Made by a program: the position numbers and the translations under genes. Below are positions 6,623 through 30,189 of a DNA stretch of 32,000 nucleotides, in pieces (positions within the stretch are counted from its first letter, which is position 1; each line of letters starts with the position of its first letter). This stretch comes from Kineococcus radiotolerans SRS30216 = ATCC BAA-149. GTDB taxonomy: Bacteria > Actinomycetota > Actinomycetes > Actinomycetales > Kineococcaceae. Under the pieces are notes generated by a model. It had not been told where the DNA came from. It searched no databases and was given only the letters and a program-made list of their open reading frames with translations. The stretch is from the NCBI RefSeq assembly GCF_000017305.1, contig NC_009806.1, forward strand, positions 150,573 to 182,572, written 5' to 3'.

Positions 6623-7234
6623 TCAGCCGGCGGCGATCTCCTGGAGGACCTCGGCCAACGAGCGGCAGTCACCGACCGCGCGGTGCCGGGCTCCAGGCAG
6701 ACGCGACGCGCGAAGGTGCCGGCCTCGGCTGTCCACGCGTCCTCGAAAGCGGGTGTAACAGTGCATGCCGCATCCCCACCGCGTGGAGCTCAACAGGTCC
6801 ACGCCGATGCGCTCGCCCTCGCGGCGCAGCAGCCCCCGGTCGAAGCGTGCGTTGTAGGCGATGACGTGGCGTCCTGCGAGCGCTGCGCGCAGCTGCGGGG
6901 CCACCATGAGCAGGTCGGGTGCGTCCTGCAGCTCCTCGTCGCCGATGCCGTGCACGGCGCGCGCGCCCGGGTCTACCGGTGTCGTGGGGCGCACCAGGGA
7001 GCTGAACAGCGGCGCGCCGTGAACGTCGGTGATCGCGATCTCCACGAGCTGGCCGTCGAGGGCGGTGGACTCGGTGTCCAGCAGGACCGAGGACTCATCG
7101 GCCAGCCACCGCTGGGCTTGGCGGACGGCCTGGCGTCGGTGGGTGGCCGGCGCCAGGCCGCCCAAGGGGACTCGTGCTGGGTGTGCGGTGCGGACGGGCT
7201 GCAGAGTGGTGCATCGCAGTACCTCTGACGTCAC
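6623..7234 (-). CDS. DEDDh 3'-5' exonuclease (DnaQ/epsilon-like)
   Basis: ExoI LLDTESTAL, ExoII AYNARFD and ExoIII HRAVGDC are present. The GTG start overlaps the upstream stop (GTGA at 7231-7234). Confidence 0.75.
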   Translation of the reverse strand: MTSEVLRCTTLQPVRTAHPARVPLGGLAPATHRRQAVRQAQRWLADESSVLLDTESTALDGQLVEIAITDVHGAPLFSSLVRPTTPVDPGARAVHGIGDEELQDAPDLLMVAPQLRAALAGRHVIAYNARFDRGLLRREGERIGVDLLSSTRWGCGMHCYTRFRGRVDSRGRHLRASRLPGARHRAVGDCRSLAEVLQEIAAG

Positions 7235-7917
7235 GACTCCTCCTTCGGCGCGTACAGCGGCCGGTTGCCGTGGCGGGGCCGGTGGCTGCGGAAGTCAGGG
7301 TTGAGCAGCTGCCACACCCGCTGCTCCGAGATGCCGGCGGCCTGGGCCAGCATCGGCTGCGTGATGCCCTGCGGGTTGAGCACCGACGCGCTGTAGAGCG
7401 AGCGCACGAGCTCGTCGCGCACCTCGCGGACCGCCGAGGCCCACTCCTCGGCCTGCACGTGGGCATGCGCCAGCTGCGGCAGCGTCTCGAGGGCGTCGGG
7501 CACCTCCACGATGCCGAGCTCACGTGCGCGCTCGGCGACCTGGGCGGGGGAGGCGGTGCGCAGGAACGGGCTGGTCTGGCTCTTCAGTGCGCGCCGGCGC
7601 AGCTGCAGCCAGCTCTGGTCGTTGGCGGCCAGGACCTTGTGCAGCCCCTGGGCGCCGGCGTAGAAGGACGCCGACAGGGCCGCGTCGTAGGCGGCCTGAC
7701 GGGCGGTCTTCGCCTCGGCGGTGGCCTGGGTCGCGGCGTGCCCCACCCGCTCCAGGCGTGCCAGGCCCTCGAGACCGGCGAGGTCCTGCAGGAACGCCTG
7801 CAGGCGCTGACGAGCCTGCTCCCGCAGCTGGTTGCGGTCGGTGGGGGGAAGGGTGGGGTCGGCCATGAGGAAGCTCCGGGGCAGGGTGGGAGGTGGTCGT
7901 TCGAGGAGGGTGAACAT
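7231..7917 (-). CDS. Hypothetical protein with a C-terminal helix-turn-helix
   Basis: The C-terminal GITQPMLAQAAGISEQRVWQLLN is HTH-like. It is the first gene downstream of module copy A. An alternative start lies at 7866. Confidence 0.5.
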   Translation of the reverse strand: MFTLLERPPPTLPRSFLMADPTLPPTDRNQLREQARQRLQAFLQDLAGLEGLARLERVGHAATQATAEAKTARQAAYDAALSASFYAGAQGLHKVLAANDQSWLQLRRRALKSQTSPFLRTASPAQVAERARELGIVEVPDALETLPQLAHAHVQAEEWASAVREVRDELVRSLYSASVLNPQGITQPMLAQAAGISEQRVWQLLNPDFRSHRPRHGNRPLYAPKEES

Positions 7918-7955
7918 GAGGGTCTTCCGTTCTGGTTGAAGGTGTGCGTGTCGTT

Positions 7956-7996
7956 GTCGCTGCGCACGACACGCCCCGAAAACCTAGCACACTAGG
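7956..7996 (-). promoter_or_regulatory. Conserved promoter/leader module, copy A (degenerate)
   Basis: Minus strand reads CCTAGTGTGCTAGGTTTT...GCAGCGAC. The core is palindromic here (CCTAG-N4-CTAGG). Confidence 0.4.
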
Positions 7997-8079
7997 AGTT
8001 GGTGCAGGCGGGAGCGTGGCGTCGCCGTGGGGCCGGTTGACCCCTGATGGTGGTGCGGTGAACGGGTGGTCGGTGATCT

Positions 8080-8430
8080 TCAGATCTCGTTGCGTCGGGA
8101 GAAGGTGGCGCAGGCGACGAGCTGGGAGGACTCGCTGCCGGGGATGAAGCGGATGTCGTAGAAGCAGCCGCTGAGCTCGTCTAGCGCGGTCAGGGGAGGG
8201 GCTCCGCAGGACCTGGTGACCAAGTCGGTCATGTCCTTGGCGTTGACCCGCAGCTTCACGAACGGGGTCCTTGGTGTCAGTGCTTCACCTACGGGACACA
8301 GGTAGGCCAGGAAGAAGGAGCCTGGCTCCGAGGCCAGGCCCGTGCGCGCAGCCGCCCCGCCAGCGGATGTCGAGGTGCTCGCGGGCGGGTTAGCGCGCTC
8401 GCCGCGGCCGCGGCGGTCGAAGAGGCTCAT
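8080..8430 (-). CDS. Hypothetical protein, translationally coupled to the WhiB gene
   Basis: ATG at 8430 overlaps the WhiB stop (ATGA). Only the last 116 aa of track ORF 8080-8787 look coding. Confidence 0.5.
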   Translation of the reverse strand: MSLFDRRGRGERANPPASTSTSAGGAAARTGLASEPGSFFLAYLCPVGEALTPRTPFVKLRVNAKDMTDLVTRSCGAPPLTALDELSGCFYDIRFIPGSESSQLVACATFSRRNEI

Positions 8431-8717
8431 CGTGTGCCCTCCCGCCGGTCCTTCTTCAGGCGCCGGCGCTCGCGCTCGGACAGCCCGCCCCAGATGCCGA
8501 AGCGCTCGTCGTGGGCCAGGGCGTACTCGAGGCACTGCTGGCGCACGTCGCAGGACTGGCACACCGCGCGCGCCGTCTTCGATGGTCCGCCCTTCTCGGG
8601 GAAGAAGACTTCGGGGTCGGTCTGGGCGCACAGTCCTGCCTCGCGCCAGGACGACGACGTGCCGTCGTCCGGCTCGGGGGTGGGGGTCTCGAAGCGGTGA
8701 AGTGTGTCGAGGGTCAT
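8427..8717 (-). CDS. whiB: WhiB-family (Wbl) iron-sulfur transcriptional regulator
   Basis: Four Cys in C-Xn-C-X2-C-X5-C (LCAQTD...AVCQSCDVRQQC), a GIWGG turn and a basic tail. ATG at 8717 with AGGAGGA 7 nt upstream. Confidence 0.85.
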   Translation of the reverse strand: MTLDTLHRFETPTPEPDDGTSSSWREAGLCAQTDPEVFFPEKGGPSKTARAVCQSCDVRQQCLEYALAHDERFGIWGGLSERERRRLKKDRREGTR

Positions 8718-8756
8718 GACGTTGTCCTCCTGCTGGTTGGGTGGTGGCCGGTTCCG

Positions 8757-8798
8757 GTCGCTGTCGGTGCCGAGCAACTAGAACCATAGCACGCTAGG
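8757..8798 (-). promoter_or_regulatory. Conserved promoter/leader module, copy B
   Basis: Minus strand reads CCTAGCGTGCTATGGTT...GACAGCGACCGG. The -10-like hexamer lies 66 nt upstream of the whiB ATG. Confidence 0.6.
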
Positions 8799-9060
8799 TC
8801 TGTCGTCGCAGCAATCCTCCTTGTGTCCTGTCTTACCCAGGTAGGTGCCGCTGACGGCACTGCTGTGACAGGTGCAGCACCCAATCTCGGCATTGGGTCG
8901 GCGGTGCACGGTCATCGGCCGGGTTGTCCGGTAGGGCCCTGTCGCTTCTACCGGCCAGACTGGCCAGCCCTCGCCTCTGCCGTGGTGGCCCGTCGTGAAC
9001 GCCCCGTGTGCGCTGTCCACAGGCGGATCGCGCCGTCACTCGAGGCGAAGGTCATCCGCG

Positions 9061-9303
9061 ATGATCGGCCGCGTGCAGAAGATGGCCGTCGAACAGTGGT
9101 GGACTCAGGCCGACCCCGTCACTCGGATCCGTGCGCTGCGACTCGAGGCAGCGGACTTGCTGCCCGAAGACATGCAGGTCGACCTAGCGATGGCCGGAGT
9201 CACGGTGAGCGCCATCGGTTGCGGATGGGACCAGCAGCCTGAGGGGTACTGGGTGCCTCAAGTCCTGTGGGACTTCTTGCGAGCCCGTGACCACGACGAC
9301 TGA
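9061..9303 (+). CDS. Hypothetical small protein (one of the few plus-strand genes in the island)
   Basis: Coding-like sequence MIGRVQKMAVEQWWTQADPVTRIRAL...; GAAGG upstream. The start is uncertain (9061 or 9082). Confidence 0.4.
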   Translation: MIGRVQKMAVEQWWTQADPVTRIRALRLEAADLLPEDMQVDLAMAGVTVSAIGCGWDQQPEGYWVPQVLWDFLRARDHDD

Positions 9304-9315
9304 CCGGCCACTGGA

Positions 9316-9337
9316 GGGAAACCGCCGCGGGCTTCCC
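9316..9337. terminator. Stem-loop between convergent genes
   Basis: In GGGAAACCGCCGCGGGCTTCCC, GGGAA/TTCCC pairs and an inner CC/GG pair extends the stem. Confidence 0.35.
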
Positions 9338-9396
9338 GACGGTCCGCGAAGACGTCAGGAAGTCCGCTTCATCCTCGATGGGAGAACCTGAGCAAC

Positions 9397-10446
9397 TCAC
9401 TCGTTCGGGGCCGGAAGCGGCGGCTGGGAAGGAGGGACGGTTGTGAGAGCCGCCTTGGCCTCGCACCGGTCTGGTTCGTTCTCGGCCCACACCTGGTCGA
9501 AGTCGGGTCCGACCCAGGCCGTCACACAGGTCCGAGAACGAAGCATCAGCGCTGCTGTCGCGTAGCGCTCATCTGATGCCACCTGGATGCCGGCGGCGGA
9601 CGGCGACGCGGTCGAGCTCAACGCCTGACGGAGCCGCTCCTGAGCTGTCCACGACGCAGAAGCGTTGGCCCGCAATGCATCCTGCAAAGCGGCGACCTGC
9701 AGCTGCCCAACCCCCGACCACGGCCAGCCGATCTGATCGATCTGGCGCAGCGATGCAGCCTTGAGGTCAGAGCTGAGCTGCTCACCGGTGTTCAGATCAA
9801 CATCGCTCGACCGGGCTGCACAATCACGAGCCCAGGCCGCGTTCCGCTTCTCCTTGCTCATGAAGGAGGCGGGGGAGAACAGGCCGTCGTCCAGGCTGGG
9901 CTTCGTGTCGGGATCCAAGGTGCTGACGCTGACGGTGCGGGCACCGTCGATCCCCTTCGTCGTAGCGGGAGTCACGGTCAAGAGCCGGCAGACGTGCACC
10001 GTCTCGGTGGGTTGCCACGAGTGCAGGGTGAGGCGCTGCCACCACTTGACGTCGTGATCGTTGGCCACCGTGAAGTCCAGCACCGCGCGAAATCCCCGCG
10101 CTGCAGCTGGAGCATCCGCGCCGCTGTACCCCGGGGCCACGACTTCGGACAGCGACACGCTTGCGCCAGACGCGGCGAAGGTGGCCTGCTGATCCGCACC
10201 GCCCGCCCCGGCGACGACGCGTGCCGCGGCTGCCCCCGCCACCTCATCGAACCTGCTGGTCGCAGGCTCATGGAAGGACGCAGTCGGACCGGCGATGAAG
10301 GCGACGCCCGCGAGGAAGAGACCCACGGCTGCGGCGCCGGCCGCGACAAGAGCAGCGTCGCCCGAGACGCTAAGTCTGCTGCCTCGCTTCCGGTTCTGGG
10401 GGGCGGACTTGCTGAGGTCGGTTCGTTCCACGGGCTGATCGATCAC
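9397..10446 (-). CDS. Membrane-anchored hypothetical protein (single N-terminal TM helix)
   Basis: AALVAAGAAAVGLFLAGVAFIAG is a TM segment followed by a large extracytoplasmic-looking domain. The GTG start overlaps the upstream stop (GTGA at 10443-10446). Confidence 0.6.
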   Translation of the reverse strand: MIDQPVERTDLSKSAPQNRKRGSRLSVSGDAALVAAGAAAVGLFLAGVAFIAGPTASFHEPATSRFDEVAGAAAARVVAGAGGADQQATFAASGASVSLSEVVAPGYSGADAPAAARGFRAVLDFTVANDHDVKWWQRLTLHSWQPTETVHVCRLLTVTPATTKGIDGARTVSVSTLDPDTKPSLDDGLFSPASFMSKEKRNAAWARDCAARSSDVDLNTGEQLSSDLKAASLRQIDQIGWPWSGVGQLQVAALQDALRANASASWTAQERLRQALSSTASPSAAGIQVASDERYATAALMLRSRTCVTAWVGPDFDQVWAENEPDRCEAKAALTTVPPSQPPLPAPNE

Positions 10447-10793
10447 AAGTCTTCGGGTCCTTCCGTGCTCTTGACGTCACGACTCAGGTAGCGGTGGAGC
10501 ATCTGCCGATCCAGTTCGCGGATCGGCTTGGTCACCGCCGCCGTTTCACGGGGGAGGTTGACGGCGTCGGGCCATCCGGTCAGGCTCACCGGCGCAGCGC
10601 CTCCAGGGCCACCGCCGGCCGCCGTGACCGCCGGTTCTCTGAGGTGCCGGTCTTGATCGGTGCACTCGCTGCCGCTGGGAGCATGGTGGGTGAGGATGCG
10701 GTGGCCCATCGAGGACGCCTCGTCTCGTCTGCAGGGGGTGGTATCGATGGAAGGTGTCGGTGCAGGTGGCGGCGAGCGGTGCGCGCCGCTCAC
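10443..10793 (-). CDS. Hypothetical protein, coupled at both ends
   Basis: GTGA overlaps at 10790-10793 and 10443-10446. GC3 counted by hand is about 70-85%. No recognisable domain. Confidence 0.4.
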   Translation of the reverse strand: MSGAHRSPPPAPTPSIDTTPCRRDEASSMGHRILTHHAPSGSECTDQDRHLREPAVTAAGGGPGGAAPVSLTGWPDAVNLPRETAAVTKPIRELDRQMLHRYLSRDVKSTEGPEDL

Positions 10794-11407
10794 GTCGAGC
10801 GCGGTTCCTTGGCTGCCGCCTGAGCGGCGGACACCCCGTCGTCGTAATCGTCGATGTGGATCCCGCCCGTGGGGTCATAGCGGCCGCCGACGTGGTCGGG
10901 GTCGTAAGCCATGAAGACCACGTCGGGGCGCCCGCCGTTGTAGGCGGAGTAGGTCTCGTAGCTCCACCCGTCGGGGGCGTACTCGTCGTTCCACCGCAGC
11001 CTCGCAGTCGGGACGAAGCCGGCAGCGGAGTAGACGCGAGGGAGGACGGTGTCGAAGCAGTCCAGGCGTCGGCCCCCGGCGGCGACGGCGGTGGCGAGCA
11101 TGGACTCAGCGCACCCGCGGTGCTCTCCGTCGGCGCGGGAGAACACCGAGACGATCTCGTCGCCCTTCAAGGCCACGCCGGAGCGGCCGTCGTCGGTGAC
11201 CAGCAGGCGCATCTGGGCGTACTCCTGCTCGGAGTAGACGTAGACCGACGCCGCGTAGGGAGTGCTCGACGCCAGTGCCGCGATCGAGTCGCGGTAGGCG
11301 CCGGCGTCCGCTGGCGCGAGCTCGTGCAGGGTCGGAGTGGACTTGCCCTGGGCGCGCAGCCGTGCGGCGAGGTCTTCAGGCGGTTGGTGCACCGCGATGG
11401 GCTGCAC
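10790..11407 (-). CDS. GNAT-like acetyltransferase-fold protein (C-terminal part of track ORF 10790-12046)
   Basis: GVALKGDEIVSVFSRADGEHRGCAESMLATAVAAGGRRLDCFDTVLPRVYSAAGFVPTARLRWNDEYAPDGW resembles the GNAT core. The frame becomes high-GC3 only below ~11425. Start is GTG 11407, or CTG 11425 overlapping the upstream stop. Confidence 0.45.
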   Translation of the reverse strand: MQPIAVHQPPEDLAARLRAQGKSTPTLHELAPADAGAYRDSIAALASSTPYAASVYVYSEQEYAQMRLLVTDDGRSGVALKGDEIVSVFSRADGEHRGCAESMLATAVAAGGRRLDCFDTVLPRVYSAAGFVPTARLRWNDEYAPDGWSYETYSAYNGGRPDVVFMAYDPDHVGGRYDPTGGIHIDDYDDGVSAAQAAAKEPRST

Positions 11408-11421
11408 CGATCGCCCGTCGA

Positions 11422-12016
11422 TCAGAAGCCGATCAGGAGCGCCTCCTCGATCGCCCCGTCCGACCACTGCGCCTCGATCGTCTCCCGCTGCGCCTGGGGC
11501 AGCTCCGGGCGCCAGCCCTGCCGCCGCAGGAACGCCTCGCGCTCCTCCGGCGTCAGGCGACTGGCCGCGGGACGGTGCTGCGGGCTGGTGGGTTCGGTCA
11601 CGGTCGTTTCCCTGCTCTCTGGTGTCGGTCGTGCTGCTGGCTGTGCTGCTGGTCGTGCCGCTGGGCGACTCGGTGCTGGTGGTCAGGGTGGAGGAAGACT
11701 CCGGCTGGGTCACCTCGGCGGCAGCAGCTCGCGCTGCAGCGCGTCGCTGGCGACCCTCCGCCAGGCGCTGCCGCAGGTGCTCCCGCTCTGCCGCTGTTCC
11801 CTCGACGTCGCCGTGCTCCAGTCGCTGCTGCAGGTCACGCTGCCCGGCGGGGGTGGAGTCGAAGTCCCGTTGGGCGTCCCGGTGACGCTGCAGCGCCTGC
11901 TGCCGTGACGGACCGTCGACACCGGCCTCCTCCAGCTCCTGTAGGCGCGCAGCAGCGGCCTCCAGGCGGTGCCGCCCATGGGCTGAGCAGCGCGGCCCAG
12001 GCTTCTTCTGACACAT
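11422..12016 (-). pseudogene. Frameshifted gene: Cys/His-containing N-terminus, coiled region, S/T-rich linker, then a 59-codon tail in the +1 frame
   Basis: ATG at 12016 with GAGGAAGGG upstream. Frame 0 is coding down to about 11615. Below that, the +1 frame has 56/59 G/C at third positions (...LTPEEREAFLRRQGWRPELPQAQRETIEAQWSDGAIEEALLIGF, stop 11422-11424) versus about 55% in frame 0. Total length is 595 nt, not a multiple of 3. Confidence 0.5.
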
Positions 12017-12125
12017 CGTCTTCGCCCTTCCTCGGTCTCGGTTCACCTCGGTAGGTGCTCCTGGGCCCTCGGGTGTGACAGGAGAAGGCCGCGGCCCATC
12101 ACCGCGTCGCTTGGCCAGCTCGTTC

Positions 12126-12157
12126 GAGCCGCGAGCCGCGAGCCGAGAGCCGCGAGG
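12126..12157. repeat. Heptamer tandem repeat GAGCCGC, 4 copies plus a partial copy
   Basis: Reads GAGCCGC GAGCCGC GAGCCGA GAGCCGC GAGG, within a 300-bp non-coding gap. Confidence 0.8.
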
Positions 12158-12262
12158 TGCTGAGGGAGGGGTGCCGCCGGTGGCGGGGGTGCGTCAGGTC
12201 TGGTGGGCAGGTGCTGGCGCCTGGGGCGGGGCGCTGCCCTCCTTCCGCCGGGGCTGGCGGTA

Positions 12263-12301
12263 GGTGCAGCGGGGGGCTGGTCGTCCGCCTGCCGCTGCAC
12301 C
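12263..12301 (-). terminator. 10-bp perfect stem-loop downstream of gene 12353-12601
   Basis: GGTGCAGCGG (12263-12272) pairs with CCGCTGCACC (12292-12301). The loop is 19 nt and there is no U-tract. Confidence 0.4.
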
Positions 12302-12352
12302 TGGCGTTGACCTCCGGGAGGGGAGTACCGCGGGGTAGCCGTTGCTGCCTGG

Positions 12353-12601
12353 TCACGGCCTCGGATGGCGCCACGCGGCGCTCGCGGCCCGGTAGGCCGC
12401 CTCCAAACGCCGCGCGAGGTCGTCAAGTGCTGGTTCGACGGCTCGGTCGAGGGCGATGCCGGCGAGGGTCACCAGCGTGAGCAGGAGGAGGAGGGCGGCG
12501 AGCGCGATCAGGCGGCGACGCCGGTACATGCGCTGACGCTCGAGGCCGGTGGGGCTGGCCAGCAGGTAGGGGTGGGCGGCGGGTCGGGTGGGCTGGAACA
12601 T
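12353..12601 (-). CDS. Small membrane protein
   Basis: 82 aa. RRRRLIALAALLLLLTLVTLAGIAL is a TM helix. GC3 is very high and AGGAG lies 9 nt upstream of the ATG. Confidence 0.6.
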   Translation of the reverse strand: MFQPTRPAAHPYLLASPTGLERQRMYRRRRLIALAALLLLLTLVTLAGIALDRAVEPALDDLARRLEAAYRAASAAWRHPRP

Positions 12602-12764
12602 GGGAGCGGTCTCCTGACCTGAGGGGTGGGTCGGCCTACGGGGGGTGGGGAGCAGCTGGGCGTCGTGCGAGGACGACGTCGCCGGGAGCAGGGGCCCGCG
12701 CGGTGGTTGCGGTGAACGGGTCTGGCTGTGGGGGCTGGTCTCGCCGGGTCAGCGGTCCTCGGGG

Positions 12765-13070
12765 TCAGCGGTCCTTAGGGAGAAGGACGGTGGTGACCGA
12801 ACGGTCGGCCTCGGTGATGACCCAGAAGGTCTGGTCGTCGATGTCGTAGGCGGAGAACAGGAGCTGACCGCTGTGGACGGCCTGCTCGTTCATGGCGGCG
12901 TACTCCGCGCTGATGCTGCCCCAGTCTCCGCTGGCGTGGCGGGTGAGCAGTCCAGCGATGTCGGTGGGGCCGTGCTGGCGGGTGCGGAGCCAGCGGCGGA
13001 CGCTGGCCGTCATCACCAGGTGTCCGGTCTGCACTCGCGGGGTCGGGGTGCTGGGGGCGGTGGCGTCCAC
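12765..13070 (-). CDS. Small plasmid-type protein with GDWG and ITEADRSxTTxLLPxx motifs
   Basis: LLTRHASGDWGS...FWVITEADRSVTTVLLPKDR matches, from memory, a small-protein family common on conjugative plasmids. GTG at 13070 with AGGAGGA 5 nt upstream. Confidence 0.6.
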   Translation of the reverse strand: MDATAPSTPTPRVQTGHLVMTASVRRWLRTRQHGPTDIAGLLTRHASGDWGSISAEYAAMNEQAVHSGQLLFSAYDIDDQTFWVITEADRSVTTVLLPKDR

Positions 13071-13107
13071 GGTGTCCTCCTGGTTGATGGTGCCGGGTGA
13101 CGATCGG

Positions 13108-13146
13108 GTCGCTGTCCGATCGACCTGTAAACCATAGCACGCTAGG
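13108..13146 (-). promoter_or_regulatory. Conserved promoter/leader module, copy C
   Basis: Minus strand reads CCTAGCGTGCTATGGTTT...CGGACAGCGACCCG. It ends 2 nt short of the stop codon (13148-13150) of the upstream gene. Confidence 0.65.
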
Positions 13147-13147
13147 T

Positions 13148-13726
13148 CTAGGCGAGGAAAGAGTGCCCGGTTGACGCGGCCTTTGCTCGCAGCGCGTCGC
13201 GTGTTCCTTCGATGTCCCGCCCGCCGGCCAGGCGCCGGTCCGGGTCGAGCGCCAGCAGCTCCAACAGCGCAGTCGCAGCCCCCGCGTGGTCACCGCCTCG
13301 GGCGGCCGTCAGGGCGGCCGCCTCCAGTTGCGCTGCGGCGTGCGAGCGCCGCTCTGCCCGCCGGGCCCTTTCTGCCTCGGTGAGGGTGAGCAGGTCGACG
13401 TGCTCGCTGAGGTAGGCGGCGGCGACCGACGTCACGTCCTGGGCGCTGAGTCCCGTCGGCGCTTGACGCCCCCACGCGTTGCCCACGGCCGCCGCAGCGT
13501 CGTAGAGCGCGGCGTGGCTGAGGTGGTCGGCCTCGAGGTGGCCCGGCTTCGTCTGGGCGCTGTCCAGGGCATCATCGTTGCCGGCGTCGTTGCCGGCGTC
13601 GTTGCCGGCGTCGTGGTGGCTGGCGTAGCTGGGTGCAGCGTGGGTCTCGGCGAGGATCGCCAGCCGTGCCCGGGCCTTGGGGGACAGGCTGGGCAGCAGG
13701 CACTCGCCTATGGGGAAGCGGGACAC
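13148..13726 (-). CDS. Hypothetical protein with an in-frame DAGN x3 repeat
   Basis: GTG at 13726 with GGAGG 5 nt upstream. Alanine-rich helical sequence. Contains the 12-bp triplication at 13576-13614. Confidence 0.55.
   Translation of the reverse strand: MSRFPIGECLLPSLSPKARARLAILAETHAAPSYASHHDAGNDAGNDAGNDDALDSAQTKPGHLEADHLSHAALYDAAAAVGNAWGRQAPTGLSAQDVTSVAAAYLSEHVDLLTLTEAERARRAERRSHAAAQLEAAALTAARGGDHAGAATALLELLALDPDRRLAGGRDIEGTRDALRAKAASTGHSFLA
13576..13614. repeat. 12-bp tandem repeat CGTTGCCGGCGT, about 3.2 copies, in frame (DAGN)
   Basis: Units at 13576-13587, 13588-13599 and 13600-13611. Confidence 0.85.
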
Positions 13727-13835
13727 GGTGACCTCCGGGGTGTGATGGGGAGTAGATCAGCGGTGGTGGGCGCCTGGGGGAGTGGGCGCGCAGGTCGCGG
13801 CGAGCCCGACCTGTTGGTGCCGACTGGCGGAGAGT

Positions 13836-13871
13836 CACCCGGCGGCCGCGGGACGCCGCGGCCGCCGGGTG
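13836..13871 (-). terminator. 16-bp perfect GC-rich palindromic stem-loop directly after gene 13879-14292
   Basis: CACCCGGCGGCCGCGG-GACG-CCGCGGCCGCCGGGTG. It begins 8 nt past the stop and has no U-tract. Confidence 0.55.
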
Positions 13872-13878
13872 GGGCCGG

Positions 13879-14292: not shown

Positions 14293-14340
14293 GAGGTGCC
14301 GGTCCCTTCGGGGGTTCTGGTTGGAGTGGGGTGCTGGAGG

Positions 14341-15266: not shown

Positions 15267-15276
15267 GGCGTGCAGG

Positions 15277-23268: not shown

Positions 23269-24030
23269 TCAGGCGGCGCGGAGCTTGCCGGCCTTCTTGC
23301 TCGCCTTCGCCTGAGCGGCCGTCAGCAGCTCACGCGCATCTGTCCCCTGCTTCGCGGCCAGGGCCAGCGCGGCGCGGCCAGCGAATGCGGACCATCCGAC
23401 GGCGTAGGGGTGGTCCTCGCCGTACCAGGCCAGGTCGAACAGGACTTCGGCGAGCTTGCGCTGCGCGGCGACCGCGGTCTTGACCGGGCGGCCCTCGTCA
23501 TCCAGCAGCGGGGAACCGTCGGCTGCGGTGATGGTTTTCTCGGCGGCCTTGGCGCGCTTCGCGGCCAGTCCGGCGGCGCGTTCAGCCTGCTCGGCGCGGT
23601 CGCGCAGCTCGTCGGCGGTGAACACGGTGCGGGGGGTCACCGGGGCGCCGGGGAAGCAGACGGTGCAGGCGTCCTCCCCGATCACGTTGACCACGGCGTC
23701 GTGGTCGAGGCCGGATAGGTCCGCCAGGACGGCGAACCGGGTGGTGACGTAGCAGGTGGAGCACGAGGTGGAGGCGTGGACGTGACCCTTGCCGTTGGTG
23801 ATCGCCAGGTAGGTGCGGGTCCAGCCGCTGCGGCGGTCCCATTCGCCGCGGTACGGGGCCTCGGCGGCGGTGGCGACTGCGACTGCGGCCTCGCGGCGGG
23901 CGATGACTGCCTCGGTGCCGTGGATGCTCTGGCGGGCGACGGACAGGCCGGTCTCGGCGTTCTGAGTAGCGGCCATGAGGGGGAACCATGCCGCGTCGAT
24001 CTCGGCGGGGGTGGCGGTGGTGAGGTTCAT
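23269..24030 (-). CDS. Hypothetical protein
   Basis: ATG at 24030 with GGAGGA upstream. Contains a Cys cluster (CSTC...CTVC) and a basic alanine-rich C-terminus. Confidence 0.6.
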   Translation of the reverse strand: MNLTTATPAEIDAAWFPLMAATQNAETGLSVARQSIHGTEAVIARREAAVAVATAAEAPYRGEWDRRSGWTRTYLAITNGKGHVHASTSCSTCYVTTRFAVLADLSGLDHDAVVNVIGEDACTVCFPGAPVTPRTVFTADELRDRAEQAERAAGLAAKRAKAAEKTITAADGSPLLDDEGRPVKTAVAAQRKLAEVLFDLAWYGEDHPYAVGWSAFAGRAALALAAKQGTDARELLTAAQAKASKKAGKLRAA

Positions 24031-24174: not shown

Positions 24175-24846
24175 TTACGCGCTGGAGCCGAGCAACGCGT
24201 CTGCCCGGCGGGCCGTCTCCACCTCACGCGCCCACGACGGCCAGGCTGAACTGCAGGCCGCGCACGACGGCATCCGACGGGCTGCGACCTCACGGAACGG
24301 GCGACCGACATGGCGGCCGCACTCGGTCAACGCATCCCCCACCCGCACCGCGTGCACGCGCGCTGGCTCCTCAGCGTGCTGGACGTAGCGCCAGGTCGGC
24401 AGGTCCGGCAGCAAGGCCACCAGACTCGCCGGATCCATTCTCCACGCCGCCAGACGCGCGAGCTGCTCCCCGATGCCCCCGGTTCCCGCCAGGGCGTCCA
24501 GGGCTCGCGGCCAGACGGCGCCCACCTTGCGGGCGTAGGCGCTCCCGGCCAGGACGATGACGTGGGCGGTGTCGAGCAGGTCGGCGCGCTTGGCCTGCTC
24601 CCGCACGATGCGCTCAGGAACCGCGATCGGAGAGTCCATGCGCAGCTCGTACGGGGCGACCTCGGCGTCGAGGGTCAGCAGGCCGTGCTTGGCGGACAGG
24701 ATGCGAACGCGGTCCGCAGGGCCGACGGTCAGCGCCGTCGCCAGGCAGGCGCGGAAGTAGCTGCCGATGTAGAGGTCTCGCGCCGGCCTCAGAGAGTCCG
24801 CCTTCTTCCCTCCGCAGGGGATGATGACGAGGGGCTGCGTGGTCAT
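24175..24846 (-). CDS. DUF6884-like protein (recalled family; function unknown)
   Basis: VIIPCGGKKADSLRPARDLYIGSYFR...ILSAKHGL resembles the N-terminal signature I recall for DUF6884 proteins of actinophages and mobile elements. ATG at 24846 with AAGGAG upstream. Confidence 0.5.
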   Translation of the reverse strand: MTTQPLVIIPCGGKKADSLRPARDLYIGSYFRACLATALTVGPADRVRILSAKHGLLTLDAEVAPYELRMDSPIAVPERIVREQAKRADLLDTAHVIVLAGSAYARKVGAVWPRALDALAGTGGIGEQLARLAAWRMDPASLVALLPDLPTWRYVQHAEEPARVHAVRVGDALTECGRHVGRPFREVAARRMPSCAACSSAWPSWAREVETARRADALLGSSA

Positions 24847-25054: not shown

Positions 25055-25429
25055 TCAGAGGTCGATGACGAGGCCATCGGGTTCGCCGGCGCTGTCGTAC
25101 TTCGCCTTCGTAGCGAGCGGTTCGTCCAGAGCCTCGCCCAGGTCCACCGGCCCCAGGGCTGTGCCGTCGGAGAACTGCACGTGGCCGTTGCGGTCGTAGA
25201 AGTGGCCGTTGTCCCACTCCGTCGTCCAGAAGGTCACTCGTGTCGCGCTGGTTCCGGGGCGGGCGAGCAGATGCGCCTGCACCGGAGTCGAGGCGGCTAC
25301 GGCAGTGCGGACGAGCTGCCCGAGCTTGGTGTCCAGACGGCGGGCCTGCTCGGCGTAGACGGCGCGGTCCAGGGCGTCAAGGTCGGCGTCGTCTAGGCCA
25401 GCAAGGGTGTCGATGAGAGGGCTGGTCAC
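25055..25429 (-). CDS. Hypothetical protein
   Basis: GTG at 25429 with AGGAG 7 nt upstream. Only the last 124 aa of track ORF 25055-26107 look coding. Confidence 0.5.
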   Translation of the reverse strand: MTSPLIDTLAGLDDADLDALDRAVYAEQARRLDTKLGQLVRTAVAASTPVQAHLLARPGTSATRVTFWTTEWDNGHFYDRNGHVQFSDGTALGPVDLGEALDEPLATKAKYDSAGEPDGLVIDL

Positions 25430-25488: not shown

Positions 25489-25526
25489 GCCGGGTGCCGT
25501 CCGCCTCCTTGCGGGCGGCACCCGGC
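25489..25526 (-). terminator. 16-bp stem (1 mismatch) immediately after gene 25531-26175
   Basis: GCCGGGTGCCGTCCGC-CTCCTT-GCGGGCGGCACCCGGC, starting 5 nt past the stop. Confidence 0.5.
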
Positions 25527-25530
25527 AGGG

Positions 25531-26175
25531 TCAGGCCGGCACGCCGCTGGCGGCGCGCACCCGACGGGCCAGCTCGATCAGCTCGTGCTGGCGCGCGGAC
25601 AGTTCGGCGCCGTCGGCGCAGTCGGCCAGAGTGCGGATGATGCCCTCGACGTCGCAGGGGGTCAGGTCGACGGGCGTGGCCTGCTCGGCGGCCACCGCCT
25701 CCAGGCGTGCGGCCTGAGCGGCGTACCGGGCCGAGGGCAGTTCCCCGCGTCGCATGGACTCGTTCTCGGCTTCGAGCGTCACGTACCGGGCGGCCACCTC
25801 GCGCAGGCGGGCAGCTTCGGTGGCGGGCTCGTCCGTCGTGATGGTGCCGCCGTACGGGGCGTACCGCTCGTCCCACAGGTTGTAGCTGTAGGTGGACCAG
25901 GTGACCGTTGTGTGCTCGGCCAGGTCGGGGCGGTGCTCGGCCGAGGAGGCGGTGAAGACACGGTTGACGCGGTAGGTCTCGGTCAGGACGGCGTCGATGC
26001 GGGCACGGACGTAGTAGGCGCGGGGGGAGTCGGCGGGAACGGGGTGGCCGTTGATGGTGACGACCTCGACCTCGTAGGTGCCGGGCAGGATCGTGTACTT
26101 GTCCCACCAGGACGCGGTGGCGAGGGTGCGGTCCACGTACTCCGTCGCGGCGGGGATGGTCAGTGTGAGCGTCAT
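25531..26175 (-). CDS. Hypothetical protein
   Basis: ATG at 26175 with AGGAGGA upstream. The translation is coherent (MTLTLTIPAATEYVDRTLATASWWDKY...). Confidence 0.6.
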   Translation of the reverse strand: MTLTLTIPAATEYVDRTLATASWWDKYTILPGTYEVEVVTINGHPVPADSPRAYYVRARIDAVLTETYRVNRVFTASSAEHRPDLAEHTTVTWSTYSYNLWDERYAPYGGTITTDEPATEAARLREVAARYVTLEAENESMRRGELPSARYAAQAARLEAVAAEQATPVDLTPCDVEGIIRTLADCADGAELSARQHELIELARRVRAASGVPA

Positions 26176-26345: not shown

Positions 26346-26534
26346 TCAGGTCGCCGGTTCGATGGCGGTGACGTTGTAGGAGGTGGTGCGAGAGCTGATT
26401 TCCTCGCCCGCCAGGTGCTGGTCGTCGGCTTCGTCCTCTGAGTCGGCCTCGACCTCGAAGACGATGACCTCGGATCTCTCGACGACGACGCGGTACTTCA
26501 CGGGGGAACGCCCTTCACTGGAGGTGGCGGGCAC
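26346..26534 (-). CDS. Small acidic hypothetical protein
   Basis: High-GC3 frame (VKYRVVVERSEVIVFEVEADSEDEADDQ...). Start is uncertain (GTG 26534 or 26501). Confidence 0.4.
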   Translation of the reverse strand: MPATSSEGRSPVKYRVVVERSEVIVFEVEADSEDEADDQHLAGEEISSRTTSYNVTAIEPAT

Positions 26535-26721: not shown

Positions 26722-27108
26722 CTACAGCTCCCCGGCCAGCTGCGGCCGGTACTGGTAGGCCCCGCAGGCGGCGAGGCTCTCGAAGTCCTCACCGACGGCG
26801 TCGGCCAGGTGGTGCAGGCTGGCCAGGAGGTCGGTCAGGGCCGTCCCGAGGTCGACGTCGGCTCCGGTCTGCTCCCAGAATGCCCGGAGCGCTACCGCTG
26901 CCGCTCCGGCGCGCCGGGTGTTGTCGTGGGCGACGTCCTCGGCGCTCGTGCCGTTGCGGAAGCGTCCGTCGCCGTCGGCGAGGGTGAGCGCGGCGGTGAG
27001 GTCCGTCAGGTTCGCCTCGACGGTGAGGGGCAGGCTGGCGGGGGCGATGACGTCGGGGGTGACGTCAGGGGTGACGTGGGCAGCGGGAGTGGAAGTGGTG
27101 GTGGACAT
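26722..27108 (-). CDS. Hypothetical protein
   Basis: ATG at 27108 with GGAGG upstream. The N-terminus contains an HVTPDVTPDV repeat. Confidence 0.55.
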   Translation of the reverse strand: MSTTTSTPAAHVTPDVTPDVIAPASLPLTVEANLTDLTAALTLADGDGRFRNGTSAEDVAHDNTRRAGAAAVALRAFWEQTGADVDLGTALTDLLASLHHLADAVGEDFESLAACGAYQYRPQLAGEL

Positions 27109-27265: not shown

Positions 27266-27613
27266 TCACCGGCGCGAGATCGCCCGCACAGCGTCGGCCC
27301 GTCCCGCCTCAGTCGGCGCGCCCCAGTCGTAGGCCGGCAGAGCGGGCATGGTCTCCCCGTCGGCGTCGAAGTTGATCCAGTGGATGTCCTCGCCCAGGGA
27401 GCGGGCGTAACGGCTGACGGCGAGGAGGTTGGGGAAGCCCGCGGCCCGCATCGCCTCGTCGTGCTCCTCGACGTCGTCGTGCTGCACGTTCACGAAGAGC
27501 CCGTACTCGTGGGCGATGACGCGCGGGCCGTCGAGCTGGAAGACGGACTCAGCGGTGTCGACTTCGCGCTGGGTGAGGTGGCAGGTGGACAGGTCCAGGT
27601 ACTTCGCGATCAC
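27266..27613 (-). CDS. Hypothetical protein (N-terminal YLDLSTCHLT motif)
   Basis: GTG at 27613 with GGAGGAG 7 nt upstream. The translation is coherent. It resembles small accessory-region proteins, but I cannot name the family with confidence. Confidence 0.6.
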   Translation of the reverse strand: MIAKYLDLSTCHLTQREVDTAESVFQLDGPRVIAHEYGLFVNVQHDDVEEHDEAMRAAGFPNLLAVSRYARSLGEDIHWINFDADGETMPALPAYDWGAPTEAGRADAVRAISRR

Positions 27614-27754: not shown

Positions 27755-28060
27755 TCAGGACGTGCCCATCTCGGGGTACAGGCGGCGCACCTGGGCGTCG
27801 GCCCATGTGCGCCGGTCCTCGGCGTCGTCGGCCTCGTCGAGGGCGTAGGCCCAGTGCTCGGTGCCACGGGTCCGAAGCCCCGCGCGCACCGCGAGCTCGG
27901 CTCCGGCGCGGCTAATCTGGGCCTCAGGGCGCTCACCGTAGTCGGTGGCCGCGTCGTAGGACTCAGCGGCCAGGATGTTGACCAGGTCCAGGCGGTCCAG
28001 GGCTACCCGCACCTGAACCGTGACCATGTGGCGCCCATTGCGGCGCAGGGTGGGCTGCAT
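27755..28060 (-). CDS. Hypothetical protein
   Basis: Coherent translation. Start is 28060 or 28027. Confidence 0.5.
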   Translation of the reverse strand: MQPTLRRNGRHMVTVQVRVALDRLDLVNILAAESYDAATDYGERPEAQISRAGAELAVRAGLRTRGTEHWAYALDEADDAEDRRTWADAQVRRLYPEMGTS

Positions 28061-28136: not shown

Positions 28137-28433
28137 TCAGCCGACCACCTCCCGCACGGGCACGTAGACGGCCAGGCCCCCGACGTGCAGGCTGGAGAAG
28201 GTGCCCTGTGCCATGGGCACCAGGCCGTCGTATCCCTGGGGGTACTGGGCCTTCAGCGCGAACGCCTCAGCCTCGGTGTAGCCGGGGAAAAGCACCCCGC
28301 CTGCCTTCTCGACCTTGCGGGCTTCTGCCGCGGTGACGGCCTGCGACTCGAGGCCGGCCTCGAAGGTGGTGTCGCCCTTGACGCCATAGGCGCTGTGCTG
28401 AGCGACGGTGTACTGGTCCTTGGCACTGCTCAT
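28137..28433 (-). CDS. Hypothetical protein
   Basis: ATG at 28433. The translation is coherent (MSSAKDQYTVAQHSAYGVKGDTTFEAG...). Confidence 0.55.
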   Translation of the reverse strand: MSSAKDQYTVAQHSAYGVKGDTTFEAGLESQAVTAAEARKVEKAGGVLFPGYTEAEAFALKAQYPQGYDGLVPMAQGTFSSLHVGGLAVYVPVREVVG

Positions 28434-28529: not shown

Positions 28530-28769
28530 TCAGAGCCGGGTGAGCGAGCTGGTCGGGATGATCGTGACGTCGCCGTCGGCGCGGATGACGCGGGTGTGCG
28601 GGGTGAGGTTGGGGGTGCGCCGGGTGCAGCGGCGGGTGTGCTGGTGCCGCGAGAGGTAGGTGCTGTCGCTGGCGCAGCCGACGTACTCGACCCGGTCCGG
28701 GACGATGAACTTCTGGTCGGTGGCGATGGTGACCGTCTCGCCGGTGGTGGTCCAGGTGGCCTGTTCCAT
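28530..28769 (-). CDS. Hypothetical small protein
   Basis: ATG at 28769 with GGAGG 7 nt upstream. It is the first gene after module copy J. Confidence 0.5.
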   Translation of the reverse strand: MEQATWTTTGETVTIATDQKFIVPDRVEYVGCASDSTYLSRHQHTRRCTRRTPNLTPHTRVIRADGDVTIIPTSSLTRL

Positions 28770-28782
28770 CGGGTGCCTCCGT

Positions 28783-28825
28783 GTCGCGGTGCCTTCAACT
28801 TGTGGCTAAACCATAGCACACTATG
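28783..28825 (-). promoter_or_regulatory. Conserved promoter/leader module, copy J (block 2 degenerate)
   Basis: Minus strand reads CATAGTGTGCTATGGTTTAGCCACAAGTTGAAGGCACCGCGAC. Confidence 0.55.
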
Positions 28826-28894
28826 TACGCGAGAGGTACACGGATCCCGTGACGTCGCATCCCAGAAGCCGCAGCGCACGGAGACGGCGCCGGA

Positions 28895-29479
28895 CTACAG
28901 CTCCAGAGCGGTGACACGAGCTCGGCGTCGACCGCGGTGATCGCGGTCGACGACCACCCGCAGCGCCATTGCCGTGAACCGAGCGCCTGTCCGCAGGATG
29001 ACGGCCGCCTCGTAGACACCGGCCCCGACGTGGTGCAGGTGCACGCTCTTGACGACCGGCGTCACCAGTCCCGCCATGGGCTGAGCGACCCCAGGAGCGC
29101 ACAGCCGGCGCTCGCGGGCGGCCAGGAGCTGCTGACGCCGCGAGACCGTCTGGTAGACCTCCGGACTGCACCAGCGCAGGAGCTGCTGGCGGGGGCGGCG
29201 GCTGGCGAAGACCCCCAGGTAGACGATCATCCATCGCCGCACCCAGTGCTCGACCTCTTCCATGTCCTGAGACGCCACGCCGGCCCCCGGTGGACGAGCA
29301 GGCGCCACGTCCATCGAGAGCACGAACTGCCCCTCGCACTGGGAAGCCTCGCCGAGCGGAGACCTCTCCTCACGAGGTGCTCTGCGGTGGACGTCGCTGA
29401 AGACGACCTGTCGGCTCTCCTCCCGCTGCTTGTCCTGCTGCCTGACGTACTGGCGAGCTGTGCTCTGGATCGTGTCCAC
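28895..29479 (-). CDS. Rv3235-like (DUF6459-type) protein
   Basis: YLGVFASRRPRQQLLRWCSPEVYQTVSRR...AAVILRTGARFTAMALRVV...RARVTALEL follows the GxRPxxQLxRWxxPxVY ... AxAxRLE ... ctaLEL pattern I recall for the Rv3235 family. GTG at 29479. Confidence 0.5.
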   Translation of the reverse strand: MDTIQSTARQYVRQQDKQREESRQVVFSDVHRRAPREERSPLGEASQCEGQFVLSMDVAPARPPGAGVASQDMEEVEHWVRRWMIVYLGVFASRRPRQQLLRWCSPEVYQTVSRRQQLLAARERRLCAPGVAQPMAGLVTPVVKSVHLHHVGAGVYEAAVILRTGARFTAMALRVVVDRDHRGRRRARVTALEL

Positions 29480-29621
29480 GAGCTACTCCCTGGATCGGTT
29501 GGATCGGTGCCGAAGCCGGCTGTCTGGGGCGCGGCCCACGGCCGCGGAGCGGGCTGGAGAGCCACGCAGAGCCGTGAGGCCGGAAGCACGCGCCTCCTGG
29601 CCCCACGAGGGAGCGAGAAGG

Positions 29622-30110
29622 TCAGACCGCGGCGTGCGCGTCGCGCCGCTGGAAGGACCAGGTAGCGGCCTCGTCGTAGCCGGGGAGCCGGTTGATGGCG
29701 GCCCGCTCGATGGCAGCAACCCAGGTCGCCGCTCGGCTCGAGGCCCAGCCCGGGTGCTCGCAGCTCTGGTAGACGTAGCCGCGCGCGGCCTTCAGGATGG
29801 CGACGGTGACGTCAGCGCCCAGGCCGGCGAGCTCTGCGGGCCGCACCGGCTGCCAGCGGTAGGAGAAGACGAGCGCCGCGTACTCGGCGCGCTCGGAGTC
29901 CTCCATCGAGGAGTAGCGGTGCTGGACGCTGAGCACGTTCTCGGCCAGCAACTCCTGGCCCAGTGCATCGGCGCTGATGACGCGGGAGTCGAGGCACACA
30001 GTGTCGATGGGGTTCGTCCCCGGCGCGTGGTGGTAGGCGATGACCTGCCACTGGCGAGCGAAGGTCACCAGCAGGTCGATGTGGTCGTTCGACTGCACGT
30101 AGGCGCTCAC
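29622..30110 (-). CDS. Hypothetical protein
   Basis: GTG at 30110 with GAGGAG 8 nt upstream. The translation is coherent. It is the first gene after module copy K. Confidence 0.6.
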   Translation of the reverse strand: MSAYVQSNDHIDLLVTFARQWQVIAYHHAPGTNPIDTVCLDSRVISADALGQELLAENVLSVQHRYSSMEDSERAEYAALVFSYRWQPVRPAELAGLGADVTVAILKAARGYVYQSCEHPGWASSRAATWVAAIERAAINRLPGYDEAATWSFQRRDAHAAV

Positions 30111-30150
30111 GGTGGTGCTCCTCTATCGGTACCGGTTGTGTGCTGGCCGG

Positions 30151-30189
30151 GTCGCTGTCCGTCCAACACTCAAACCATAGCACACTAGT
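30151..30189 (-). promoter_or_regulatory. Conserved promoter/leader module, copy K (rightmost)
   Basis: Minus strand reads ACTAGTGTGCTATGGTTTGAGTGTTGGACGGACAGCGACCCGG. Confidence 0.7.

Follow-up and report, generated by a model that had tools for sequence, protein, structure and literature searches.

Box-and-hairpin cassettes at the operon heads of a small-gene array assigned to the Kineococcus plasmid pKRAD01

What ties together a long run of small genes of which most belong to no known family, and to what kind of mobile element does such a run belong? Both questions are raised by positions 6623-30189 (the island) of a 32-kb stretch of DNA, here called the window, which has a G+C content of ~70% and which we assign below to the linear plasmid pKRAD01; of this plasmid, the analysis covered the window. 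A sequence-only reading of the island had counted about 40 short open reading frames (ORFs), almost all on one strand and mostly unrecognisable, behind repeated strong-looking promoters, and had compared the whole to a conjugative leading region or a phage early region. Gene calling based on the G+C content of third codon positions (GC3), in agreement with independent calls on identical short-read contigs, gives ~38 ORFs, 34 of which form a single minus-strand array that runs from 30110 down to 6623 and encodes products of 51-349 aa; both the count and the near-single-strand bias of that reading are thereby borne out. The array consists of 11 operons, each headed by a cassette of ~50 nt, a division that is made because each copy of the box described below precedes the first ORF of a gene run. 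This promoter-hairpin cassette is a new element of the region, and we lean towards seeing the island as a variable accessory region of a Kineococcus-type linear plasmid family, represented here by pKRAD01, that is organised as one regulon of 11 cassette-headed operons.

The box and its leader hairpin

A repeat search of the window returned a 16-nt box, CTAGTGTGCTATGGTT when read on the minus strand. Allowing for up to two mismatches, it occurs in 11 copies, all of them on the minus strand and in the orientation of the genes, while none were found in 100 shuffled sequences. Every copy is located upstream of the head of a gene run, at a distance of 39-70 nt from its first ORF, and the consensus of these copies is (C/A)TAG(T/C)GTGCTATGGTT. 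The box resembles an extended -10 element (TGC-TATGGT, i.e. TGnTAnnnT), and no conserved -35 is present across 21 cassettes from three elements. As such, the repetition of promoter-like sites that the earlier reading had noticed stands; in a simple scan, the boxes do not match the -35/-10 consensus. Since the box lies outside the sigma-70 consensus and no -35 is kept with it, we infer promoter function from its position, its orientation and its likeness to a -10 element. The cassettes are listed here with their covariance-model scores.

30138-30188, minus strand: cassette 1, box CTAGTGTGCTATGGTT and hairpin with loop ACAGCGAC, 73.5 bits; divergent from the 175-aa gene
28790-28824, minus strand: cassette 2, box ATAGTGTGCTATGGTT with a degenerate hairpin, 21.5 bits
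27139-27189, minus strand: cassette 3, box and 11-bp hairpin, 74.7 bits
26187-26235, minus strand: cassette 4, box with a degenerate hairpin, 25.3 bits
24055-24093, minus strand: cassette 5, box and variant leader with a degenerate hairpin, 30 bits
21725-21775, minus strand: cassette 6, box and hairpin, 53.9 bits
16128-16177, minus strand: cassette 7, box and hairpin, 46.6 bits
14328-14378, minus strand: cassette 8, box ATAGTGTGCTATTGTT and 11-bp hairpin, 67 bits
13095-13145, minus strand: cassette 9, box CTAGCGTGCTATGGTT and a hairpin of different stem sequence, 66.8 bits
8742-8797, minus strand: cassette 10, upstream of the WhiB gene, box and two-tier hairpin with the same loop, 34.8 bits
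7942-7995, minus strand: cassette 11, upstream of the helix-turn-helix (HTH)/exonuclease operon, variant box CTAGTGTGCTAGGTTT, 33.1 bits

Downstream of the box, two further blocks are kept, GGACAGCGACCC and CAACCAG. For most cassettes, RNAfold predicts a hairpin with CAGCGAC in its loop, and this hairpin starts 4-6 nt past the box, approximately at the predicted transcription start. The conserved loop, ACAGCGAC, sits atop a stem of 7-11 bp of variable sequence, the two arms reading for instance GUGUUGGCGGG/CCCGUCGACAC, GUCGAUCGG/CCGAUCG(U)C or GCGUGUCGUG/CGACACGC with the loop unchanged. Cassette 11 departs from this pattern in having an unrelated stem and a larger loop, CGCAGCGACAA.

Do the two arms change together? 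MAFFT alignments of the copies were structurally wrong and were replaced, at first by an anchored ungapped alignment and then by one made with a covariance model. In the anchored alignment of 13 copies, 83% of the positions are paired, compared to 37-55% in shifted registers and 64% in column shuffles, and none of 2000 such shuffles reached the observed value. The covariance model, built from seven cassette copies, retrieved exactly the 11 cassettes from the window and no other site. When 22 distinct copies were aligned to it, 89.5% of the cells were paired versus 63.3% after shuffling and 29-50% in slid controls, counts that are inflated by the fitting of this alignment to the structure, so that the anchored test is the more conservative of the two. 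In the 22-copy alignment, all 11 stem pairs vary on both sides.

No Rfam family matches the hairpin, and the cassette sequences were not found in the literature searched. An exact-motif scan of metagenomes yielded 120 loci, which were discarded as chance matches or an unrelated low-GC repeat. Terminator-like sites occur in the window at chance level. Separately from the cassettes, strong hairpins are present between consecutive genes of the same operon at 13836-13871 (a perfect 16-bp stem) and 25489-25526 (a 16-bp stem with 94% complementarity); these could be internal terminators or processing sites.

Plasmid location and relatives of the island

On which replicon does the island reside? The 175-aa protein that is encoded divergently from cassette 1 has a counterpart of 100% identity in Kineococcus radiotolerans, and ten more proteins of the window are exact matches to K. 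radiotolerans SRS30216, four of which are labelled '(plasmid)' and one of which is Krad_4685. These matches suggest that the window is part of pKRAD01, a linear plasmid of 182,572 bp (CP000751; PMC2587704), in which case the region belongs to a linear plasmid and is not a chromosomal island. A placement at the very end of pKRAD01, based on locus-tag numbering, was dropped, Krad_4702 being RadA.

By means of a 76%-identical GNAT-like protein, a sister island was found on the 105-kb metagenome contig Ga0160427_10000055. With ~20 kb it is shorter than the island of the window, and the same box and hairpin occur in it eight times. At its head are the divergent 175-aa gene (42% identity) and the 162-aa first gene (69%), and at its tail WhiB, a 116/138-aa gene, the HTH protein (78%) and the exonuclease (72%), the range of amino-acid identity to the window being 42-78%. 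The GDWG, 59-aa and GNAT-like genes are also common to the window and the sister elements, and about half of the cargo of the sister island has neither a counterpart in the window nor a Pfam family. Over the 9.9 kb that precede the sister island, genes for an ECF-type sigma factor, a LuxR-type protein and sugar modification are present, with no cassettes and no transfer genes. A third element, ENA contig k141_100478, carries two cassettes and a GNAT-like protein of 94% identity (amino-acid identity to the window is 73-93%), and here TetR, SDR and insertion-sequence (IS) cargo has been inserted between the GNAT-like gene and WhiB. That the cassette and the end genes are kept while the cargo turns over argues against both a core-genome region and a chance duplication. 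The chromosomal, core-genome island that the sequence-only reading had considered as its alternative is therefore not what we see: the location is on a plasmid, and the cargo is mosaic between sister elements. Within the sister island, an opposite-strand gene of 1426 aa at 12696-16976 of the contig (minus strand) has a weak match to STAND NTPases and may be a defence-type insertion.

Relatives among sequenced plasmids and phages are more remote. At the level of near-identical DNA, only a 180-bp whiB match was found among phages and plasmids, and tblastn of the concatenated island proteins against the same two groups gave single-gene matches only, without synteny, except for a partial match of the type of the Rhodococcus linear plasmid pNSL1 (NC_010850). 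On pNSL1, small hypothetical genes form a same-strand array of 20 kb, which has the exonuclease (37% identity) and the pair of 59-aa (49%) and GNAT-like (62%) genes in common with the island, includes an HTH protein, and has repeated intergenic motifs of its own, in 10 and 6 copies (array at 9071-20792). However, these motifs are unrelated in sequence to the cassette, the gene order is different, and the array of pNSL1 is headed by FtsK/SpoIIIE and ParA-like genes, whereas no FtsK is seen in the window. The motifs of pNSL1 are a 27-nt sequence ending in CACGTCCCGG (10 copies) and a promoter-like TTGCAA...TATAGT with an internal inverted repeat (6 copies).

A putative regulon and its rivals

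How might a single cassette serve 11 operons? Most likely, the -35-less, extended -10-like box would be a promoter, so that the mRNA would begin with the hairpin, to be read there by one common factor. A conserved loop on arms that vary freely suggests that what is read would be a folded single strand, most likely of RNA and less so of DNA. The factor may act via the box, the hairpin loop, or both; it would then switch or stabilise all 11 operons, or let them be read through, as one group, with the effect exerted on mRNA stability, translation or read-through. Candidates for it are the WhiB-like protein, the divergent 175-aa protein and the 211-aa HTH protein. Wbl proteins act through region 4 of sigma-A, and the WhiB of the island could substitute for the -35 element at these -35-less promoters. 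The cargo is an exchangeable mosaic of small, often very acidic proteins together with DNA-directed enzymes and regulators, and several of the cargo genes circulate among actinobacterial plasmids and phages. Such content fits a putative role in establishment, host manipulation or counter-defence.

Several results weigh against a jointly controlled regulon of this kind. A scan of the region with a simple sigma-70 -35/-10 consensus gave no sites, three of the 11 cassettes of the window (those at 24093, 26235 and 28824) have a degenerate hairpin, part of the pairing statistics is inflated as described above, and no RNA-binding protein has been identified. Moreover, no transfer genes were seen in the 32-kb window, known anti-defence, SSB and PsiB families were not detected in it at E<=0.01, and PADLOC reported no defence systems, giving only generic DEDDh, ABC and DUF6884-like matches. 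A bolder version would have the island be an undescribed module of actinobacterial linear plasmids, in which WhiB-served -35-less promoters and ACAGCGAC-loop hairpins bound by a protein of the element fire or antiterminate the 11 operons together, for example upon entry into a new host, and in which the interchangeable cargo is a reservoir of new anti-defence and host-takeover proteins for actinobacteria; that version we consider doubtful.

The sequence-only reading had offered two such comparisons, the first being a true conjugative leading region, expressed zygotically and rich in anti-restriction, anti-CRISPR or SOS-inhibition genes. Anti-defence islands have been described in the leading regions of conjugative plasmids (Samuel et al. 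2024, PMC11541004), with the reported T-strand orientation and dedicated promoters, and the island resembles them in being plasmid-borne, in its long co-oriented run of small genes behind repeated shared promoters, in its variable, mosaic content, and in its many genes without a known function; many of its small proteins are acidic. Furthermore, in the Pseudomonas conjugative element pKLC102 the GDWG domain makes up the C-terminal part of a DUF6094 protein of 481 aa, which adjoins a helicase within a same-strand run of small genes, and DUF5983 adjoins CbtA toxin modules in E. coli. The Frpo/ssi promoters of leading regions, however, are imperfect hairpins of ~300 nt that contain the -35 and -10 (PMC11541004), whereas here a short double-strand-type -10 box is followed by a small hairpin that excludes it, and none of the 11 boxes is spanned by a Frpo-like long inverted repeat. 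ArdA, KlcA/ArdB, ArdC, PsiB, SSB, orphan methyltransferases and Acr were all absent when every ORF was searched with Pfam, NCBIfam and PHROGs at E<=0.01, the fold-level search covering two proteins. No oriT, relaxase, type IV secretion system (T4SS), type IV coupling protein (T4CP) or FtsK-type translocase was found in the window or in the 10 kb that precede the sister island, nor was TraB found, and the sole mobilisation hint in the window is a weak NikA-like ribbon-helix-helix match (E=0.01) of a 78-aa protein at 873-1109. The host replicon differs as well, being a linear actinobacterial plasmid, and the related pNSL1, which has the FtsK/SpoIIIE-type gene, is typed as non-mobilizable. Such actinomycete plasmids are transferred as double-stranded DNA, and no leading region is known to have been defined for this mode of transfer. 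In its strict sense, a leading region is therefore unlikely; what survives of the comparison is a unidirectional accessory regulon of a mobile element, with genes common to plasmids and phages, and by analogy the region would be a reasonable hunting ground for anti-defence genes. The second comparison would make the island the early or immunity-proximal region of a plasmid-resident prophage or phage-derived satellite, with the boxes as early promoters and the hairpins as nut-like antitermination sites. In nut sites of the lambda type, the boxB hairpin is bound by N; there, too, the early promoters of a mobile element are closely followed by a small hairpin of conserved loop, which could couple several operons to one factor, but the 11 copies here compare to two, the loop is unrelated in sequence and size, no N-like family was detected, and antitermination is hypothetical in this case. 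Eight ORFs of the window match PHROG families, among which WhiB families reflect how common WhiB genes are in actinophages; the fold of the 162-aa protein matches uncharacterised phage proteins only; the 253-aa and DUF6884 proteins are present in actinophages; and homologues of the GNAT-like protein occur on 32 viral contigs with a G+C of 0.39-0.69, which indicates that this family moves widely among mobile elements. A parallel to the cassettes themselves is found in Cluster K mycobacteriophages, whose start-associated sequences (SAS/ESAS) have a 13-bp motif, GGGATAGGAGCCC, directly in front of the start codon (Pope et al. 2011, PMC3203893). Both are short asymmetric motifs, repeated 11-19 times in one orientation before genes of differing families and kept across related elements whatever the downstream gene; about half of the SAS sites have an inverted repeat, and their function is unassigned. 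They differ in that the sequences are unrelated, the box here is -10-like and lies 39-70 nt upstream, ESAS arms are conserved around a variable spacer whereas here variable arms surround a conserved loop, and the elements are phages there and a plasmid here. Against a phage origin, and in line with the earlier reading's report that phage structural, relaxase, T4SS and integrase genes are lacking, family scans of the 32-kb window found no capsid, tail, portal, terminase, lysis or integrase families, and there is no tRNA. Moreover, none of 50,697 phage records is syntenic with the island, a scan of IMG/VR for the exact box gave no match, and the flanks carry functions of plasmid type (an HTH_36 protein with iteron-like palindromes, dxr, an ABC ATPase). 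We hold a phage early region to be highly improbable.

Two further explanations concern the cassette itself. If its hairpins acted at the DNA level, as attC-like or ssi-like recombination or priming sites, the array would be a platform for the capture and exchange of gene cassettes. Variable, covarying arms around a kept unpaired centre are what would be expected of any folded single strand, and the cassettes are indeed the same where the cargo differs between sister elements. Yet the hairpins lie at a fixed distance of 14-18 nt past a -10-like box, in gene orientation and at operon heads only, not between every gene; no integron-type integrase or other recombinase was found in the window, and the switches between shared and unshared genes do not fall strictly at cassettes, all of which leaves this possibility with very little weight. 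Alternatively, the island could be ordinary plasmid cargo, in which the box and leader are a strong host-type promoter that was copied by segmental duplication and has no dedicated regulator, and in which the genes play no special part. Promoters of the TGnTAnnnT type that lack a -35 are said to be widespread among actinobacteria, most of the cargo has no predicted function, and the block at 16309-19827 is of a plain metabolic or resistance type. On the other hand, the full 16-nt box and the loop octamer are kept where orthologues are only 42-78% identical, the stems show compensatory changes, and no copies occur in the 9.9 kb adjoining the sister island; this account, too, is very unlikely in our view.

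If the island is indeed one cassette-headed regulon of a linear plasmid, what would follow from it? Anti-defence genes and establishment regulons are well charted in proteobacterial conjugative plasmids and in some phages, and hardly at all in actinobacterial linear plasmids. The island provides a clearly delimited set of ~34 genes, mostly without a known family, in which the sister element separates core from swappable genes, and the box with its covarying hairpin is a compact cis-element with which further regulons of this sort can be searched for. Should the cargo counter restriction, CRISPR or other systems, the leading-region concept would be extended to a different transfer biology; should it not, the cassette would still be a new example of a plasmid synchronising many operons.

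Genes of the array and its flanks

The genes of the island and its borders are given below from right to left, in the direction in which the array reads.

30222-30749, plus strand: 175-aa protein, candidate regulator, divergent from cassette 1; at the same place in the sister island (42% identity)
29622-30110, minus strand: 162-aa first gene, with a YQSCEHPGW motif that is invariant in the family
28895-29479, minus strand: 194-aa basic DUF6459 (Rv3235-like) protein, from Pfam
28530-28769, minus strand: 79-aa ORF, from gene calling
28137-28433, minus strand: 98-aa ORF, from gene calling
27755-28060, minus strand: 101-aa ORF, from gene calling
27266-27613, minus strand: 115-aa acidic protein with a DUF5983 C-terminal domain, from Pfam
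26722-27108, minus strand: 128-aa acidic ORF matching phrog_3963
26346-26501, minus strand: 51-aa very acidic ORF, from gene calling and charge
25531-26175, minus strand: 214-aa ORF, from gene calling
25055-25429, minus strand: 124-aa acidic ORF, from gene calling and charge
24175-24846, minus strand: 223-aa DUF6884 protein (YaaA-like), PF21818, E=2.8e-20
23269-24030, minus strand: 253-aa protein (Krad_4685 in a longer annotation) matching phrog_15500
22567-23181, minus strand: 204-aa ORF, from gene calling
21863-22489, minus strand: 208-aa strongly acidic ORF, net charge -26, from gene calling and charge
21405-21716, minus strand: 103-aa acidic ORF matching phrog_37099
20879-21280, minus strand: 133-aa protein with a winged-helix (DprA_WH-like) C-terminus, from Pfam
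20518-20733, minus strand: 71-aa ORF with a weak match to phrog_2761
20296-20487, minus strand: 63-aa hydrophobic, membrane-like ORF, from gene calling
19945-20166, minus strand: 73-aa acidic ORF, from gene calling and charge
16309-19827, mixed strands: interrupting cargo block of 3.5 kb, partly of low G+C, without cassettes
19336-19827, plus strand: DinB/mycothiol-S-transferase of the cargo block, profile match
18326-19150, minus strand: 274-aa membrane/coiled-coil protein of the cargo block, in a stretch of 59% GC
17414-18073, plus strand: HAD-IB hydrolase of the cargo block, profile match
16309-17211, minus strand: APH-like kinase of the cargo block, profile match
15277-16116, minus strand: 279-aa extremely acidic protein, net charge -54, with a D/E-rich tract; a possible DNA-mimic candidate by its charge
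15000-15185, minus strand: 61-aa ORF, from gene calling
14576-14917, minus strand: 113-aa acidic, Cys-rich ORF, from gene calling and charge
13879-14292, minus strand: 137-aa acidic ORF; one homologue in the sister island (60%), another on a plasmid of Mycobacterium avium (30%)
13148-13726, minus strand: 192-aa ORF, kept in sister elements
12765-13070, minus strand: 101-aa GDWG/ITEADRS protein with plasmid homologues
12353-12601, minus strand: 82-aa basic membrane-like ORF, from gene calling and charge
11422-11601, minus strand: 59-aa ORF, always just upstream of the GNAT-like gene, Rhodococcus pNSL1 included
10790-11407, minus strand: 205-aa divergent GNAT-fold protein, from the predicted structure
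10443-10709, minus strand: 88-aa ORF of weak coding signal, from gene calling
9397-10446, minus strand: 349-aa ORF with an N-terminal membrane segment and lower GC3, from gene calling
8427-8717, minus strand: 96-aa WhiB-family regulator, PF02467, E=1.3e-24
8080-8430, minus strand: 116-aa ORF downstream of WhiB, kept in the sister island
7231-7866, minus strand: 211-aa protein with a C-terminal HTH, candidate regulator, 78% identity in the sister island
6623-7234, minus strand: 203-aa DEDDh 3'-5' exonuclease (RNase_T, ExoX-like), PF00929, E=2.9e-11, full-length match
5519-6502, minus strand: 327-aa orphan ABC-type ATPase directly downstream of the last operon, of uncertain membership in the island

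Pfam recognises six proteins of the array (RNase_T, WhiB, the DprA_WH-like winged helix, DUF6884, DUF5983_C and DUF6459), and an NCBIfam scan of the ORFs of the window added nothing for the array, in agreement with the earlier description of most ORFs as unrecognisable. Phage families without a known function in PHROGs are matched by the ORFs at 10790-11407, 21405-21716, 23269-24030 (E=2e-40) and 26722-27108; matches are weak for 20518-20733 and 26346-26501, and a weak HTH match was obtained for 7231-7866. Matches to serglycin and FEA1 were rejected as artefacts of the Gly-Ser linkers that join concatenated proteins. The individual calls of the sequence-only reading fared well: WhiB, the DEDDh exonuclease and DUF6884 are each matched in Pfam, and its acidic proteins are exemplified by the two most charged products listed above.

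The call of a GNAT-like domain is borne out at the level of the fold. From a 48-sequence alignment, AlphaFold2 models the protein with a predicted local distance difference test (pLDDT) score of 96.1, and the top 50 Foldseek matches in the PDB are all GNAT-type N-acetyltransferases, with a best E-value of 2.6e-4 and target-normalised TM-scores of ~0.4-0.57. By sequence, the protein has no Pfam or NCBIfam matches, and a profile of the 48 sequences gave none against the PDB; some sources do name its homologues GNAT. Homologues of 55-62% identity are present on many Rhodococcus plasmids. In the original GenBank annotation, a long ORF at 10790-12046 (418 aa) overlaps the conserved 59-aa ORF in a different frame; the 59-aa and 205-aa products are kept as separate frames on pNSL1 and the sister islands, and the upstream 150 codons of the long ORF (11601-12046) have a weak coding signal.

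For the protein with GDWG and ITEADRS motifs, which had been called plasmid-type, homologues were found on 171 plasmid records, mainly from Vibrio and Pseudomonas. When the protein set of 6623-13034 was concatenated, some part of it was matched by more than 3000 records of plasmids, the majority of them conjugative and enterobacterial. This match falls outside the first 809 residues of the concatenate, only the 171 records matching the GDWG protein, and the part responsible is probably the DEDDh exonuclease. The latter is closest to ExoX (4fzx, E=2.3e-9), with its DxE motif in LDTES and H-x4-D in HRAVGD. The closest solved relative of WhiB is 8dy7_H, a Streptomyces WhiB (E=2.3e-29), and the sequence of the island protein contains four cysteines spaced C-x22-C-x2-C-x5-C and an FGIWGG turn (G[V/I]WGG).

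In the DUF6884 protein, the motifs CxxxK and LSAxxG read CGGKK and LSAKHG; these motifs have been described for DUF6884/YaaA-like proteins (PMC11701544). Homologues of the 253-aa protein are found on Mycobacterium plasmids and in phages of Gordonia, Mycobacterium and Streptomyces. The first gene of the array encodes a 162-aa protein whose model (pLDDT 94.7) has a fold that is common to uncharacterised phage proteins of uncultured origin, with no match to a solved structure in Foldseek and none for the family profile against PDB sequences. A scan of a genome collection returned relatives of 32-40% identity, three from Nocardia and one from a metagenome-assembled genome (MAG) of Pseudomonadota, without synteny.

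Some minor observations concern the surroundings of these genes. A 31-nt repeat beginning with TTCnCGGTCnnCCCGCGTTG is present in three intergenic gaps of the cargo block (16255-16285, 17313-17343 and 18095-18125). The ABC ATPase at 5519-6502 lacks a permease, has generic matches to the defence-system ATPase models mad3 and AriA, and is convergent with a gene (4605-5453) whose 282-aa product has the C-terminus of a DUF559-like endonuclease. At the right edge of the window, positions 31963-32000 and the next 65 nt hold three small palindromes with a GCCA centre (CGC-GCCA-GCG, GGCCGC-GCCA-GCGGCC and CGCGC-GCCA-GCG), and the only contig that reaches this point ends there; they may be telomere-related, a terminal position being unproven by locus-tag numbering.

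The left flank resembles a region of plasmid maintenance and cargo, and comprises the 78-aa protein, a 392-aa HTH_36 protein, dxr, a CAP-domain protein, the DUF559-like protein and the orphan ABC ATPase. About 10 tandem copies of the 12-mer GGCTCGCACGCA are found at 365-508, where several short-read contigs stop. The HTH_36 ORF (1428-2606) overlaps the start of dxr, and contains at 1841-2021 four perfect 27-bp palindromes, CACGGGGTGCAATGGCTGCACCCCGTG, at spacings of 39, 42 and 66 nt, which look like iterons or an origin and at which short-read assemblies break. The plasmid-borne dxr (DXP reductoisomerase, 2603-3850) is full-length and stands outside its usual neighbourhood, and it adjoins the gene of the CAP-domain protein (4058-4561), whose counterpart beside dxr differs in length in two other samples.

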